DNA of 64,000 nucleotides from Narcine bancroftii (Eukaryota). Location: positions 219,170,001 to 219,234,000 of the forward strand of contig NC_091469.1 of assembly GCF_036971445.1 (NCBI RefSeq), read 5' to 3'. The stretch's first letter is position 1. Each line of letters begins with the position of its first letter. The notes under the pieces were generated by a model. The model was not told the DNA's origin. It saw only the letters and a program-made list of their open reading frames with translations, and searched no databases. Shown piece by piece: positions 4,126 to 56,060 of this stretch. The translations under genes were made by a program, and so were the position numbers.

Positions 4126-4979
4126 CGCGGAGCAATATGTTGAGAAAAAAAACCCTGAATGCTGGAGGTGGCGTTTTCCTACTTTGCATAGAAGCTACAA
4201 TCCACAAGCGAGAATCTGAGAAAGGCTGAATATAAATGCAAATGTTTGCCTGTCAGTGAGTGCATGGAGAAAAGCAGTCTCGGAATTGTAGTATTTCATG
4301 TGAATTGCAAATAAGCTCTGATTTCATGGAAATGACCAATGTAAATTCCAGTTCTTTTTTTTTTCAAGTGCATTTCAAATACATAGGAGGGGAAAAAGAA
4401 AACATTTCAGACACAATTGTGTCATTAGGGAGGTTTTTAGATTGACAGTATTCCTGGATTTTGAATCTGATTGGAGAAAAGGTGCCAAATATTTTGCTAA
4501 TGCACATGTCAAGGGCACCAGACTGGAGGAGACTTTTGTGGAGGGAATCTGAGAAAGGGCAGACATTTTGCACACTGTTTTCTGCTCTTCACTGTGGCTT
4601 TTGGACAATGTGAGAGGGAAGGCAATGCATCTGCAAATTAATAGCTCATAGACAACAATCATTTTACAGTTTGGTAGGTAACATTAACAGTGAGGCTTTG
4701 ATGATAGTTGAAGATCACCATGATTGACAAAGGTAACTGGTGGTCAAAAATTATGAAATCTTTGTATTAATATTATCACTGAAGAGAGCTGAACTTGCCT
4801 GTCCGATCAGAAATATAGTAAGACAGATAATTTATGCCAAGTATGTTGTATTCTCCAGCTTCAAGCAATTGTTTACAACTGTATGCAAAATTAAAATCCT
4901 GGCCATAAGTCAGTTTAAAAGGCAAACTGTAATGAAAATTGCTTCTGTTCTCTTGGCACTCTAAAATTAACAACTAAGG

Positions 4980-6108
4980 ATGAGGTTATGGAGTTCCAAG
5001 ATAGGCCAAAGTCAGCATTGTTTCCTTAAGAGAAAATCTTGCCTGAAAAAGCTACTGCAATTTTTTTGAGAAAACCACAAGCCGGCTGGACAAAAGACAT
5101 GCAGTGGATGCTGTATATTTGCAAGGAGCTGCACGTGAGGCCCATTGGAAACATACTTGCATTAGTAGAACCTAGGCTGATCGGCAGGAAGTAGAGTGGC
5201 AATAAAGGGTATTTTGGTTGGTTACCACAGGGATTATTGTTGGTGCTGTTTCTTTTTGCTTTGTATGTTAATGACTTGGAATACAGAATAAATGACTTGC
5301 AGATGGTACAAAGATAGTTGGAGGGGTAGGTAATGAGGGAGAAACAGAGATGCTGCAGAAAGACTTGGATAGATTAGGAGAAAGGGCAAAGAAATAGAAA
5401 ATGAAATACAATGTTCGAAAGTCTCTGGTCATGCCGTTTGGAAGAAGGAATAAAAGGGCAGACTATTATTTGGATGGGGAAATAATTCAAAATTCATACA
5501 TGCAAAGGAGACCCTAAAGATTGAGTCAGTAAAGAAGAAAAATGCAATGATGACATTCCTATCTCGAGGAATTGGGTACAACAGGGATGTGATGTTGAGG
5601 CTTTATAAGGCACTGGTGAGGCCTCACTTGGAGTATGGGGTACAGTTTTAGGTTCCTTATTTAAGGAAGCTGTGTTGGCATTGTAGAGGACTCAGAGAAG
5701 ATTTGCAAGAATAATTCCTGGTATGAAAGTATTAGCATATGAGGAATGTTTAACTGCTCTTGGACTGAACCCCTTGGAGTACAGAATGATTGGGGACCTC
5801 ATAGAAGCATTTTGAATGTTGAAAGTAGATGTGGCAAAGATATTTCCCATGTCAAGGCCAAGAGGGCATAATTTCAGGATTGTAGGACACCCACTTAAAA
5901 CAGAGATGTAAAGGAATTTCTTGAGCCAGTGAGTGGCGAACCTCTTGAATTTACTACAATGGGCATCTGTGGAAGATAGTTCATTGGTATATTTAAAGCA
6001 GAGTTTGATAAGGTTGTGGGGAGAAAGCAAGGAAGTGTGGCTGAGTGAGAGAATGGATCAGGTGGAGTGAACTCAATGGGTTGAATGGCCTGTCTCTCAT
6101 GGTCTTCA
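4980..6108 (+). mobile_element. CR1-clade LINE RT/3' end, decayed
   Basis: SQH-F and 'gtggatgctgtatattt' RT motifs, 'aggctttataaggcactggtgaggcctcacttggagtat', and the 3' tail 'aatgggttgaatggcct'. Confidence 0.85.
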
Positions 6109-17725: not shown

Positions 17726-19639
17726 GTTAATTGGCCATTGTAAATTATCCCTCCTCATTTGGTCATTAATAAAATTATGAAGGTAATGTGGCGAGATTAA
17801 ATTATGCTAAAGTAGTAACAGGTGCTTGATGGTCAGTGCAGATGTGATGGGTCTGTGAAATAATTATTTGAAAATCTTCTGAGATATCTGTAGAAGCAGC
17901 CATGATAATAGACAAGAGGCATTTTCAAGTGGAGAAAAAGGAACAAAAATGTCTCCAGGCTCTTGCAGTGTCTGGTACTTTTATACTATGAATGGTAAAT
18001 CATCTGAAGGAATAAGGTCTATACAGTAATGGTTCTGTAGTACATTATGATATAGTAACAGAATGAATGTACTACAAAATCATTACTGTATAGACGTATA
18101 GTTTTGATTTATTAAAATGGTATCAGTTGACTTGTATTAAATCATGGTAAATGATGTGACATAACAATTTCATTCTGACAGGGCTATTGTGGCAGGGCAC
18201 ATTGTCATTGGATGAGCACTGACAATAAAGCCAATTCTTAATATTAGATTTATTAGGAGTTTCACCTTAGGAAAGGTATATTTTTTGTCCACATATTAAA
18301 ACACGGTAAATCTGCTACATATAAAACTCTTAACTAGACATTTACATTTCTGACATAATGCCAGGCTAAGGAGGTCCATTGCTTGTTCTAGCAGCTCTTG
18401 GAGGTAAAACATTAACTCAGCCTGAACCAACAAGATAATGTTGCTCTTTGATTGACAAAGCCACTGCAGAATTTTAAACATACATAATTTCTTGTATAAT
18501 TATTGTACTCTGTTTATTTTTGGCACCTTTTCAATCTGGGATAGTCCATGTTTCAACTTTCAATCGTGAACAATTCAATCCTCTCCCAAGGGTCATTGTG
18601 CACTAACTGGACTGGCGGGTTTTAATAGTTTTTAATAAATACTGATAAAAACTATGCAATAGTAAATTTAAAAAAATATATAGTAACCTTATTAAAAGTT
18701 TGGCACAATAGTCAAGATTACTTCATTCAATTTTACATTGATTTTATTTGACATTAGATTGAAAGCCAATTTTCTTATACTCAACCAATGTTTTCTATTG
18801 AATCAATACCCTCTCAAATCAGCTCCAGGCTTGGAATAACTAGATTTATACCTAATCTTTAAGTGTATGGTTTATATTAACCAGCAGGTGACCAATCTTC
18901 GTGTTCATTGCAATCCTACAGGATAAGGGTCAAAATCTTAGAAAGTCGCTTCCAATTTTATTTGGACCAGTATGTATTTTCTGCAGGTTCAGAGGCTGGT
19001 AAAAGAAATAATTAAGTTTTATTATAATATTCAAGTGACATATGAATATTTCGGTGGTGTTTCTTTGGTTAGTTTCAAGCCTTTGCACTGGTTCCAAAGT
19101 GTTTGCATGTGAATGGACTTCCAAGTTGGCCAAAATCTAGAATCTATAAATTGGAAGACAAAAAAAATCTGTTAAATTGTTCTGATGTTTTGGCACGTGA
19201 ATACTTCATGCTAATTACCTTTGATGCTTAACAAGAGAGATTACAAAATGTGGATTAGTTAGAGAGGGGTGCACAACAGTAATTACGCAATAACTCCTGC
19301 ACTCTTTCCACTGATGTACGGAGCATGGCAGGGAAATATTACACTCAAACAATTTACCTACAGAAGTAAGTTTCATCATCACATCCAATAGCACTGGCAG
19401 AAGCAAAACCTTGATTGTTATACTCAATAGTCTTATAATATTATACGTTAGTTATAAGCCTTTCAAAGGCTTACATAAAATCTCTATGTTCTTGTTCAGG
19501 CAAAAATAACATATCCCACATAATAAGACCTATGGGATATTTGGAGATTTACTGTTGGGTACTGGGTCAAAAATTGTCCCTTAAAAGAATACATTCAAAA
19601 TATCCGTATCTTTCTTGTCCCTTAAAAGCATGCAGCCAA

Positions 19640-50335: not shown

Positions 50336-51792
50336 TTTGAACATAGGAACATAAGAAATAGGAGCAGGTGTCGGCTGTCCGATCCGTCGAGCTTGCTCTG
50401 CCATTCAATGAGATCATGGCTGATTTGATGATGGGTTCATCTCCATCTAATGCCTTTTCCCTACAATCACATAATTCCCCAACTATGTAAAAATCTATTC
50501 AACCTTGTCTTAAATATACTTACTGAGGTTGCCTCTACTGCCTCAATGGGGCGCACTGCCACAGATTCACCATCCTCTGGGAAAAGCCATTCCTCCTCAT
50601 CTCCATCCTCAATCTACTGCCCTGAATCTTAAGGTTATGGCCCCTAGTTTTAGGCCTGCCCACTAATGGGAACAACTTACCAAACTCCATCTTATCTATG
50701 CCTTTCACAATTTTATTCCTTTCTATAAGGACACCTCTCATTCTTCTAAATTCAAGCAAGTATAGCCCAAGGTGACTCAATCTCTCCTCATATACTAATC
50801 CCCTCATCTCTGGAATCGACCTGGTGAACCTCCTCTGTACTGCCTCCAAAGCCAGCTGTACATCCTTCCTCAAGTAAGGAAACCAGAACTGGATGCAGTT
50901 CTCCAGAAGCAATCTCTCCAATACTTTGAAGAGTTAACCTCTCTGTTCTTACATTCAATCCTTCTATCAATGAAGGCCAATATTCCATTTTCCTTCTTGA
51001 TAGCCTGCTTTACTTGCAAACTAACCTTTTGTGATTCATGCATAAGCACTCCCAAGATGCTCTGCATGGCAGCATGCTGGAATTCTTGCCAGTTAAATAA
51101 AAATCGGATCTTCCAATTTTCATTCCAAAGTAGATGACCTCACATTTATCATCATTGTATTCCATCTGCCAGACATTTGTCCACTCATTTAACTCATCTA
51201 TATCTCTCTAAAGACTCGCCGCATTGTCTGTACAATTTGCTTTTCCACTTAATTTAGTGTTATCAGAAAATTAGATACACTACACTCTACCCCCTCTTGT
51301 AGATCATTAAAGTAAATCATGAAGAGTTGCGGGACCAGCACTGACCCCTGAAGCACCCCACTCACCACCAACTAGAAAAACACTGTTGTACCCCAACTCT
51401 TCTCTTTCTATTGGTTCACCAATCCTCTATTCATGCTAATACATCATTCCCAACCAACTCTGTGCATCCTCATCTTCTGTATAGGTCATTTATGTGGCAT
51501 CTTATCGAACGCCTTCTGGAAATCCAGGTAAACAACGTTCATCCGCTCCCCTTTATTTACTGCGCTCATTATATCCTCAAAGAACTCCAGTAAATTTGTC
51601 AAACAGGACCTGCCTTTGTTTAATCCATACTGCGTCTGCCTGATGGATCCACTTCATGCTGAATGTCTTGCTATTTCTTTTTTAATGATAGTTTCAAGCA
51701 TTTTCACCCTTATGGATGTTAAACTAACTGGCCTGTCGTCCCTGCCTTTTTTCCTACATCATTGTTTGAATAGTGGCACAACATTCACCACC

Positions 51793-51999
51793 TACAGTGA
51801 ACTGAGATTCATTGGTAGTGTGTTGTGCTGATGGCTGACTCTGCCTCCTGGCTCCGCCCCCATCTACCCATATATAACCCTGGTTTCCCGCCTAAACCCA
51901 GAGCTCATCCCAAGACCACTGTAAGACCCTACCCTCAATTATAAGCTAATAAAAGTGGTTGTTCTCCCTCCAGTTGTGAGAGCTTTGATTCGTGCTACA
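51793..51999 (+). repeat. 5' LTR
   Basis: tacagtgaactg...gctaca (TG changed to TA); TATA tatataa at ~51871; AATAAA at 51948. Confidence 0.9.
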
Positions 52000-52025
52000 A
52001 TTTTATTAGCTTATATCTCTAGAAG

Positions 52026-52838
52026 ATGGAAGCACTACTCAAGCCAGGGGTGCTGCTGATAGACCGTCTGGCTGCTACTGAGGAGTTCACATACTGGCTA
52101 GACTGCTTCCAGGCCTACCTGAATGAGACCAGAGACATCTTCTGCACCGATGAACTCAGGATGTCGGTACACATTTTGAGGTTAGGAATGAAAGAGTATG
52201 TAGTCATCGGGGACTGCACCACATATGATGCTGCCATTACGGCATTGAAGGCTCAGTACGTGAAGTCAAAGAACGAAGTCCTAGTGAGGCACAACCTCGC
52301 TCTATGTCGCCAATGGCCTGGAGAGACCATCGATGACTACCTGCTGGATCTGTGGATGTTTGCCAAGAAGTGCAGGTACGAAACTGATACACGATGTGTT
52401 CAGGAGGAAGAACAGATCCAGGATTCTCTAGTAGAGGGGGTCTGCTCAAGGTACGTGAGGCAGCGACTGCTCGAGTCGGATAAGAAGGAAATGGCAAGCC
52501 ACGTTGAACTGGCCAAGTGGCTGGAACAGGCCAAGCTTGAGAATGATGACCTCGAAGCTAGCGAGCTTGCTCACTCAGATGACTCCTTCCAAAGACCGGC
52601 TGCTCCTGCTATCCCTGCCCTAACAGCTGCTGCTTCCCGCGCTAGGGAGCACTCCCACAATAGGGAGTCCTTTTTCTCTAGTAAGAGCCAGCATCCCAAA
52701 TCACATTGCCTGGCAAAAGACTCAGTGTGCTCCAGCCGTGGTAAGAAAGGGCACTGGGCGAGGGTTTGCCATGCAAGGGGAAGACAGGGAAGTTCACAGT
52801 TCTTGGATCTGATTGCAGCCCCAAGCCGTCTGCCCTGA
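52026..52838 (+). pseudogene. gag: gag, still open for 270 aa but with degenerate zinc knuckles
   Basis: CRQWPGETIDDYL...IQDSLVEGV...VRQRLLE; knuckle remnant HPKSHCLAKDSVCSSRGKKGHWARVC. Confidence 0.85.
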
Positions 52839-53079
52839 ATTTGCCTGAACCCACTTGCTGCGCTACACACTGAAGGAGGGTGGCAGTTAGAAAACGGCGT
52901 GAAAAGGCTCAGTGGCCATCTTGCCGTGACTCAAATTCAAACTCGGCACCTTCATCATCAGAGGAAGAAGGAGGGTGGCCATCTTGCCACGCCACGAGGT
53001 CAGCGCCATCTTACCCGCAGGTAACTCGGGACGATGGCGGCCACTCAAGTGAGGAATACGGAATCTCCGGGGTCATAGC

Positions 53080-55560
53080 CTCCATGGTTCTGGATCAGGC
53101 CAGGCCTCTCCAGTTTAGCAACTCCATCGTGACTGTTAAGGTATATGGACATTCCACTAAATGCCTATTGACACAGGCTCTACTGAAAGATTCAGAGACT
53201 CACGAACTGCATGAGAATACAACCTGAAGGTGTATCCTTCCAATTATTTCATATTCCATTCGCACTCCACCCGTATTCAAGGAACATTGTATGGTACATT
53301 TTGTATGTACTTAATGAATTGTGTTCTCTGGTACTGTTGAGTTTGGATTTCTTGTGTCACCTTAAAAGCGTGACTTTGGAGTATTCTGGTCCCCTCTCTC
53401 CCATAATGGTTCGGAATGGAAAACTTTTAAAGTTTGAACCCACATGCAGCTTCTCCACACTAAATATCAACACCTGCCCTCCCCTCTTCCTAAATCTGTC
53501 CACAGGCTGCAAACCTATAACTACCAAGAACAGGCGCTACAGCACACCAATGTCTGCTCGATGAAGGTATCACGAACCTAGCACCAGCCCATGAAGAGTG
53601 CAAGTGGTGGTGGTAAAAGAGGAAAATTAGTCCAGGCTAGTAATTGACTATAGCCAAACAATTAATTGGTACACACTCCTGGATGCATACCCCCTCCCTT
53701 GAATCTTGGACATGGTGAATGATATAGCACAGCATCGGGTCTATTCAACTATTGACCTGAAAGCAGCTAATCCATACTGAGGACCGCCTCCACATGGCAT
53801 TTGAGGCATACGTTCATTTCTATCAATTCTAGAGAGACCCTTTCGGTATTATTAATGGGGTTTCTATCTTCCAGAGGCAGATGGGCAGAATGGTGTTTGA
53901 ATACAGGTTGAAGGCTACCTTTCTCTACCTCGACAGTGTCACCATCTCTGGTCTTACCTTGGAGGATCATGTTGCCAACCTTCAGAACTTTCTCCATGCA
54001 GCAAAAGCCATGTACCTCACAAAAATCCAGCATGTGTGTGTACAGGACTAAACGTCTGGCTATCCTTGGCTACATGGTGACGAATGGTATCAATTGCGCT
54101 GACCCCGATAGGATGTGCCCCCAGGACCATGAAAGCTTTGAGGAGATCCACGCACAGTGGATCCCTCAATACGCCGATAAGGTTCACCCCCTCCTAAAAG
54201 CCACTACATTTCCCCTCTTGGCTGAAGCCCAAACAGCTTTTAACTACCATGTGAAACCACATTGCAAAAGCCGCCATGCATACGGTGGCTGAGAATGTAC
54301 CTTTGCAGGTGGAAAGCGAAGCTTTGGATGTGACCCTGGCTACTACCCTCAACCAGGTGGGCAGGACGCTTGCATTTTTTTCTCGGACATTGAAAGCCCA
54401 TGTGCTCCAAAACCCCTCAGTGGAAAAGGAGGCTCAAGCCATTGTAGAAGCCATGAGGCACTAGAGACACTACCTGGCTGATTGGAAATTTATGCACCTC
54501 ACTGACCAGCGCTCGGTAACATTCATGTTTAATAATGTCAAGAGGGGAAAAATTAAGAATGACAAGATTGCTAGGTGGAGGTCGAGCTCTCCACCTACAA
54601 TTAAGTCATTGCCTATTGGCCAGGTGCCCTTAATGACCCTCCAGATGCCTTATCCAGAGGTAGCTGTGCCTCTGCACACATTGGCCAACTGCGGACTCTG
54701 CTTAATGAGCTCTGCCATTCAGGGGATAACCACATGGCTCATTTTGTCAAGGCGTGTAATCTGTCCTACTCTATGGAAGATGTCAGGGAAATGACCAGCT
54801 CTTGCCATGTCTATGCGGAGTCCAAGCCACATTTCTACTGCCCCACAAAAGCGCACCTGATCAAGTCATCCAGGCCCTTCGAACGGCTCCGTGTCGATTT
54901 TAAGGGACCTCTCCCCTCCATGAATGGGAACACTTTCTTCCTCTCTATCACTGATGAGTACTCCCGCTTCTCGTTCACCATCCCATGTCCAGACACGTCC
55001 ACTTTGCCAGTCATAAAGGCCCTAGACTCCATTTTTGCCCTGTTTGGGTATCCCAGCTATATTAATAGTGACCGGGGCTCATCCTTTATGAGTGACGAGC
55101 TGTGTCAGAACCTGCTGGTGAGGGGCATCGCATCCAGCAGGACTTCGAGCTACAAAGCCCAGGGGAACGGGCAGGTTGAAAAGGAAAATCCCACGGTCTG
55201 GAAGGCTGTCAAGCTGGCCCTCAAGTCAAGAGGCCTTCCTGACTCGTGCTAGCAGGAAGTCCTTCCTATGGCGCTCCATTCCATCCATTTGCTACTATGT
55301 ACAGTGACCAAAGCTACTCCTCATGGGCTCCTATTCAATTTCAAGAGAAGGTCGGCATCAGGAACTACACTTCCAACCTGGCTCACCACTCCTGGTCCAG
55401 TCCATCTCAAGTAGCATGTGAGGAGAAGCAAGACAAATTCCCTGGTGGAAAGAGTGAAACTGCTCCATGCCAATGGATGCCTTTGTGGAGTACCCAGATG
55501 GCAGGGAGGACAACGTCTCCATCAGGACCTGGCACCCGTCGGAACAAGTGCCCTATGAGC
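53080..55560 (+). pseudogene. pol: pol (PR-RT-RH-IN), frameshifted
   Basis: IDYSQTIN..TLLDAYPLP and YLD RT motifs; LAFFSRTL...SVEKEAQAIVEA and LTDQRSV RNase H; PFERLRVDFKGPLP...SDRGSSF...GNGQVE integrase. Confidence 0.88.
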
Positions 55561-55853
55561 CCCAGAGCTCATTCTCGCCACCCCCAGTCAGTGCCTCAGG
55601 GGATCTAGTTCAGGAGGAAAGTGCATCCCCCTCCATCGTAGAGCCGGAGACCCAGTCTGCCTCTCCTCCCGCACAAGGGGCCCAGGACACTCAAGGAGTT
55701 CAAGGCTCCCCGGTGCTAAGGCACTCAACCAGGATCTCCAGACCCCGGACCACTTTAACTTTTAAATAACTATATAATTAAAAAAAAAAATTCTTCTGAC
55801 TCTATATTCTCTGTCTTCATCCACATACCCTAAATTCTGCAGGATGGGGTGAA

Positions 55854-56060
55854 TGCAGTGAACTGGAATTTACTGATAGGCTGTTGTACTGATGGCCGCC
55901 TCCACCTCCTGACTCCACCCCCATCTGCTCATATATATCCCTGGTTTCCTGCCTAAACCCTGAGCCCTTCTGAAGACCACTGTAAGACCCTACCCACAAT
56001 TATCAGCTAATAAAAGCCCATATTCTCCCTCCAGTTGTGACAGCTTTTATTCACGCTACA
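55854..56060 (+). repeat. 3' LTR
   Basis: tgcagtgaactgg...cgctaca; aligns with 51793-51999. Confidence 0.9.

Follow-up and report, generated by a model that had tools for sequence, protein, structure and literature searches.

A Gypsy lineage of rays and other animals whose primer site pairs with its own LTR: likely self-priming without tRNA

An old Gypsy element and its LTR/leader duplex

The window, the whole stretch of 64,000 nucleotides from the ray Narcine bancroftii that was analysed, contains an LTR retrotransposon with the following features.

51793..51999, forward strand: 5' LTR of 207 nt ending in CA, a direct repeat of 55854-56060; family copies start with TG at the same column
51871..51877, forward strand: TATA-like box after GC-box-like motifs, from which an RNA start near 51900 would be predicted
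51940..51954 (51941-51954 at family level), forward strand: LTR arm complementary to the primer site, candidate 3' part of a self-primer, holding AATAAA at 51948-51953
51955..51999, forward strand: loop that separates the arm from the primer site; a stem stacked on the primer helix is predicted to begin with the first bases of this loop
52001..52015, forward strand: primer-binding position one base past the LTR, without TGG, complementary to the arm
52026..52838, forward strand: gag with decayed zinc knuckles and a premature stop at its end, weak Retrotrans_gag match
53050..55769 (start approximate), forward strand: broken pol (protease, RT, RNase H and integrase, in that order), with the integrase core inside the frame 54605-55252
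55841..55853, forward strand: polypurine tract region before the 3' LTR
55854..56060, forward strand: 3' LTR, in which the arm recurs at 56001-56015 with a single mismatch against the primer site and AATAAA is covered by a 9-bp stem

The element belongs to Ty3/Gypsy by its TG..CA LTRs, its polypurine tract and its protease-RT-RNase H-integrase order, the order being read from the intact sister family L032 since the window copy is broken. The two LTRs of the window copy are 83% identical over 205 aligned nt, and with gag stopped and pol broken this copy is old and dead. No chromodomain was seen in its pol. The twin-CCHC gag described in an earlier note on this DNA is decayed in the window copy and intact in L032, a young family, and two CCHC knuckles are also found in 90 of the 120 relatives listed.

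No TGG tRNA primer site is present at the post-LTR position. As the earlier note had pointed out, 52001-52015 is the exact reverse complement (15 bp) of 51940-51954 and is separated from the terminal CA of the 5' LTR (51998-51999) by the single base 52000, with AATAAA lying inside the LTR arm. The stem over AATAAA that the same note had placed in the 3' LTR (56009-56017 with 56043-56051) is likewise present. None of 2000 dinucleotide shuffles of the window LTR reached 15 bp with the post-LTR sequence, and the flank after the 3' LTR pairs over only 4 bp. The MFE z-score of the leader region (-0.89) is non-significant, so that the signal lies in the position and covariation of the duplex and not in overall folding energy. 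Perfect inverted repeats of at least 15 bp within 130 nt occur at two other places in the whole window, 1002-1026 with about 1078-1105 (25 bp) and 18017 with about 18080-18095, both with short A/T-rich spacers and possibly representing miniature inverted-repeat elements.

The primer site was compared with 30 host tRNA genes representing 11 anticodon types, mitochondrial tRNAs not being among them. The best match within this set is 6 nt anywhere and 1 nt at a 3' end, the latter being the outcome of the search against tRNA 3' ends suggested in the earlier note; the control element L160, by comparison, matches the 3' end of tRNA-Ser(GCT) over 14 nt. A search of Rfam with 51700-52200 gave no match at E<=1.

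Conservation and covariation in the ray genome and beyond

An LTR query of the 3.3-Gb genome gave 5710 candidates at first look; 40 of these were scored, and 30 copies, the window copy among them, were retrieved. A normal TGG site, for which the earlier note had proposed to look in the family, is carried by none of these 30 copies. A duplex of at least 12 bp is kept by 19 copies and one of at least 14 bp by 16 (the misparsed copy L012 being entered as a miss), whereas the 15th pair occurs in the window copy only; the 15-bp duplex first reported thus holds for that copy and becomes 14 bp at family level. This family also possesses a second, U5-based hairpin over AATAAA (51948-51990 and 56009-56051), whose 8-bp core is found in 22 of 30 copies. 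Either LTR can adopt this hairpin, which at the 5' LTR is in competition with the primer helix; it resembles the poly(A) hairpin of HIV-1. By eye, no such stem was seen in the L032 or L044/47/50 families.

Further families of the lineage were found in the ray genome by integrase search. Their arms differ from one another, and their post-LTR sequences differ correspondingly. The young sister family L032 has LTRs 96-100% identical and a single gag-pol frame of 1429 aa. Young elements, with LTRs 99-100% identical and 5-bp target duplications (6 of 6), possess the duplex and no TGG, indicating that they moved without a tRNA site. The RT-RNase H of L032 is identical to a protein labelled Narcine bancroftii. 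It shares 73-80% of its residues with proteins from sharks and rays, and 58-64% with proteins labelled sea anemone, whipworm and sea cucumber, hosts that are known by these proteins alone and not by LTRs.

Related elements were collected from metagenome and genome contigs. Of 87 loci, some of which were binned with bacteria and are presumably eukaryotic DNA, 49 gave a match running from the gag start, and for 41 the DNA upstream was long enough. Eight loci of this animal lineage (L130-L137) lie in assemblies titled bacterial MAGs and are likely host DNA binned with bacteria. In 28 of the 41 loci, which fall into about 19 family groups, an inverted repeat of 10-19 bp is the longest one locally and begins exactly one base after the CA; expressed otherwise, 28 of the 31 loci with a duplex of at least 10 bp share this register. 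The 13 misses comprise four mutated copies of positive families, three copies of one family with wobble pairs, L058 and L061 (13-15 bp when read by hand), and four loci without a recognisable LTR or gag start. The LTR/post-LTR duplex is a real, lineage-wide trait.

The pairing is specific to each family. Across 26 families the post-LTR sequence pairs with its own LTR over 13.5 bp on average versus 4.9 bp with a foreign LTR, and only 10 of 650 foreign pairs reach 10 bp. The observed pairing sum was matched in 0 of 100,000 permutations, a count that is not a probability because 19 of the 26 families were chosen among the positives (the other seven come from the ray) and the families are related. 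At most of duplex positions 5-13, three or four Watson-Crick pair types are found, and close relatives differ by compensating paired single changes (L085/L087, L044/L047). Such variety does not come from ancestry alone: the covariation check put forward in the earlier note gave two-sided change across families and hosts, within a fixed register. A site that changes with each family's LTR is also a stronger argument against a tRNA primer than the partial tRNA set.

Nine TGG-bearing Gypsy elements of the same genome, examined as controls, pair with their own LTRs over only 4-7 bp, and the tRNA sites of control families start 0-5 nt past the LTR. A positive control on the sushi LTRs of this genome was unsuccessful, the copy found being decayed. 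In IMG/VR, none of 56 pattern matches was a relative.

Lineage placement and known systems

Phylogenetic trees of RT-RNase H included chromodomain-bearing fish elements, Gmr1-type elements and TGG-bearing families of the genome. From one tree 13 of 63 rows were dropped as redundant, short or poorly read; other trees held 34 and 24 rows. The trees are unrooted, with Gmr1-type elements as outgroup and without fungal Tf1 or named Mag elements, and the AU tests were run on the 24 rows under a simpler model. The RT of the lineage forms one deep long branch (100/100), as do the chromoviruses (100/100), in the 34-row tree; the tree from which the 13 rows were dropped gave the same result. Forcing the window copy among six fish and ray chromoviruses was rejected (p-AU 2.3e-6), which places its RT outside the vertebrate chromoviruses, in keeping with the position outside Tf1/sushi suggested in the earlier note. 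Forcing the whole lineage to be the sister of the chromoviruses was not rejected (p-AU 0.35). The 1429-aa L032 protein has no chromo or SH3_Tf2-1 match at E<=1, and PF00385 or PF24626 is found in 0 of the 120 relatives listed, which upholds the missing chromodomain also claimed there. By the features tested, the lineage is not a member of Tf1/sushi. The earlier note had further suggested an independent self-priming mechanism outside that group; self-priming is the best reading of the present data, while an independent origin is unproven because the sister position is not rejected. An abundant Gmr1-type family (L141-L156, L164-L173; integrase before RT, TGG-containing site) scores above the Pfam SH3_Tf2-1 cut-off, and matches to this model in the genome are mostly Gmr1-type, so the model is not chromovirus-specific.

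Membership in Mag, to which the earlier note had likened the gag, is uncertain. The free tree joins the long branch of the lineage to four Mag-like TGG families at 86/87 only, and the label of those families is itself one that we take from primer-site motifs and not from named references. Twin CCHC knuckles in gag are a feature of Mag, though not specific to it, and Mag elements have a tRNA primer site with TGG. For the present lineage a Mag-like label, resting on twin knuckles and compact size, is unproven. The lineage shares 5-bp target duplications with the Mag-like families of the genome; unlike it, these have TGG sites, one of which matches tRNA-Ser, and they are only about 30% identical to it in RT-RNase H. 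The Mag lineage (clades A, B and C) and the MolGy clades of molluscs and annelids resemble it in being compact, with LTRs near 200 nt, one gag-pol frame (as in puffer Mag1/2, PMC11117352) and a wide metazoan range. The lineage may already bear a clade name; a search for its peptide motifs in supplementary files of PMC6238403 and PMC12471100 gave no match.

Several self-priming systems have been described. In Tf1, an LTR segment complementary to the primer-binding position is cleaved to free the primer, according to the text available from PMC7175516, PMC5341516, PMC4600332 and bioRxiv 2022.12.06.519325. Like Tf1, Tf2, Tj1 and sushi, the present elements are Ty3/Gypsy elements without a tRNA site and with a primer site complementary to their own LTR. 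Unlike Tf1/sushi, they possess neither a chromodomain nor a Tf2-type SH3 domain and their RT falls outside the fish chromovirus branch; their duplex is 10-19 bp as against 11; their arm usually covers the poly(A) hexamer and is predicted to lie within R, while that of Tf1/sushi is the first bases of the RNA; and in place of the flanking duplexes of the Tf1 'pretzel' a stem is stacked at the AAA|RCC junction. Self-priming has also been predicted, from at least 10 bp of LTR/post-LTR complementarity, for Tcn1 chromoviruses and for the TAR (Houba, Osr-1) Ty1/copia elements of plants (PMC6317226, as far as its text was available). The type of evidence is the same as here, the lineage or superfamily and the plant hosts are different, and TAR puts self-priming outside Tf1/sushi already in print.

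Other systems are alike in part. Saci2/lennie of flatworms have a single gag-pol frame, a length of 4.7-5.2 kb and a primer site varying between families (PMC12471100), but their target duplications are of 4 bp, not 5 bp, and their sites are assigned to tRNAs (PMC12471100, PMC4558846, both in the text available). Identity with Saci2/lennie was set aside for these two reasons, in a comparison by description and not by sequence. Skipper of dictyostelids also has a pyrimidine-rich primer site without TGG; however, it carries a chromodomain, and the accessible part of PMC5006619 describes its LTR as having no complementary segment. In the literature accessible in whole or part (including PMC8220671, PMC10680173 and PMC5443660; subscription papers and Repbase lay outside the scope), self-priming was encountered only for Tf1/Tf2/Tj1/sushi, Tcn1 and TAR copia, with a novel mode suspected for Skipper. 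The PBS is unmentioned (0 matches) in the available text of the metazoan Gypsy surveys PMC11117352, PMC8556966 and PMC6238403. What is found here is likely self-priming, a known mechanism, in a lineage for which no report was found.

The proposed priming and its alternatives

In 21 less redundant families the 3' end of the arm has A at -3, -2 and -1 (21, 21 and 20 families), and the bases past it are a purine at +1 (20), C at +2 (19) and C at +3 (17). A G stands ten bases before the arm end in 17 of these families, and positions -14 to -30 are weakly conserved. The bases +1 to +3 have a pairing probability of 0.68 versus 0.31 in shuffled loops, the value being higher in 17 of the 21 families. 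The MFE z-score of the loop alone averages -0.53. The primer helix itself has a probability of at least 0.73 in 24 of 25 families. In a simple duplex test, counterparts of the two Tf1 'pretzel' flanking duplexes rose above shuffles in only 2/21 and 1/21 families, and the cutting step proposed below is therefore borrowed from Tf1 without its full structure. A constant spacing of one base after CA would be needed for a primer 3' end, since minus-strand synthesis has to start at the end that integrase uses; the hiding of a poly(A) signal needs no such spacing.

In three ray families, GC boxes and a TATA-like box were read by eye 55-70 nt before the arm, an initiator-like dinucleotide follows about 30 nt past the TATA-like box, and no box stands 30 nt before the arm. 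These motifs were assigned by what we take to be their consensus, and they predict an RNA start 30-40 nt upstream of the arm. No clear TATA-like box is seen in the LTRs of invertebrate type. Contigs of four sets from one study, presumed to be RNA, cover the LTR of a young family; contigs cannot show starts, ends or cuts.

From these features we infer the RNA start, the cut site and the nuclease as follows. Transcription would start near 51900 in the window copy, and the arm would fold onto the primer site. The RNA would then be cut at the conserved AAA|RCC junction (after 51954), where the primer helix meets the stacked stem, probably by the element's own RNase H, by analogy with Tf1. The resulting primer would measure about 55 nt, of which the terminal 14 nt would pair, and its freed 3' end would prime a strong-stop DNA of about 46 nt on the loop 51955-51999. 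The strong-stop DNA could jump to the 3' R by means of the 15-30 nt past the poly(A) hexamer. In elements with AATAAA inside the arm, masking of the 5' poly(A) signal may be a further effect of the primer duplex. Self-priming in some form is highly probable. The version just described, in which an internal arm of the element's own RNA replaces the tRNA, is the reading that we prefer, at a probability of roughly 0.6. A more ambitious claim combines three parts, namely the independent invention of tRNA-free priming by an animal-wide Gypsy lineage, a long capped primer cut from R at AAA|RCC, and the recruitment of the poly(A) signal as the 3' arm of the primer, one duplex both silencing the 5' poly(A) site and starting reverse transcription. 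We put it forward tentatively and consider it rather doubtful. The lineage extends over rays and sharks and, by RT relatives, over sea anemones, a sea cucumber and whipworms.

Among the alternatives, the exact geometry of Tf1 would have the RNA start at the arm or a few bases before it, the primer being the first 14-19 nt of the transcript, as the RNA 5' ends are for Tf1 and Tj1 (PMC7175516 and PMC4600332, in their available text). Such a start would suit the initiator-like motifs (TCAGTT, CCATTC and TTATTC, by the consensus as we presume it to be) that several ray families carry 3-4 nt upstream of the arm, and also the ending of the duplexes at 10-19 bp, but the promoter motifs of the three ray families lie at the wrong distance for it and the weak conservation at -14 to -30 also speaks against it, so that it is unlikely. 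The arm might also prime from elsewhere, that is, as part of the 3' R of the same RNA or of the second one packaged with it, or as part of a short LTR transcript, perhaps released by host 3'-end processing and not by RNase H. The arm lies in R and hence at both RNA ends, its end is one base past the poly(A) hexamer in many families, and flanking duplexes like those of Tf1 are missing, all of which would fit. Host poly(A) cleavage, however, is expected 10-30 nt after the hexamer and not at +1. Eight of 25 arms lack the hexamer altogether, and structure predictions for 24 of 25 families are dominated by the cis pairing at the 5' end. All this makes priming from elsewhere quite improbable.

As a further or alternative role, the earlier note had proposed that the pairing may conceal the 5' poly(A) signal. 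In favour of this, A(A/T)TAAA lies within the paired stretch in 17 of 25 families, pairing is possible only at the 5' LTR, and the window family has in addition its U5 hairpin over the hexamer. With the canonical hexamer missing from the arm in 8/25 families, it fails as the general purpose of the duplex. In L057 and L070 the pairing arm has no hexamer, and an unpaired AATAAA follows 26-28 nt further downstream; L134 contains a second free AATAAA, and the arms of L136 and L099 have none. Hiding of the poly(A) signal is accordingly a second role at most. That it should be the only role, reverse transcription being primed otherwise, is a little less probable still than priming from elsewhere, given also a one-base register (28/31) for which it has no need and the lack of any other visible primer site. 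Least probable by far is that a tRNA, a tRNA half or another host small RNA binds the site and that the match to the LTR is incidental or a chance repeat. Half-tRNA priming without TGG does occur in Copia lineages (PMC6317226, available text), and the tRNA comparison covered 11 anticodon types only; yet the site varies by family and always tracks its own LTR, the tRNA genes compared match over 6 nt at most and Rfam not at all at E<=1, and no shuffle reached 15 bp.

LTR elements are generally regarded as tRNA-primed, the exceptions listed being Tf1/sushi, Tcn1 and TAR. Whether hairpin or tRNA priming came first is an open question (PMC3601003, available text), on which a further deep and widespread animal lineage without tRNA priming would bear directly. 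Defences based on tRNA fragments aimed at the primer site would be expected to miss self-priming elements, and annotation tools demanding a tRNA site would report too few of them. With its constant AAA|RCC junction the lineage offers an exact cut position that can be put to the test, for an RT that would need to cleave an RNA duplex.

Some loci deviate from the common arrangement. In L094 (150-250) the motif of LTR end and primer site is present twice, about 60 nt apart, upstream of gag. In one family (L124, L125 and L128, about 4930-5000) the duplex is imperfect, contains a G-U pair and begins at a displaced position, and L099 has the variant junction AAAT|TTC; both are natural variants useful for defining the cut rule. 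In two relatives of invertebrate type (L061:3990-4046 and L063:3760-3800, both in the region of the 3' LTR), the arm is preceded at 15-20 nt by a run of pyrimidines that ends in CAG and resembles a splice acceptor, which could mean a leader intron or trans-splicing.
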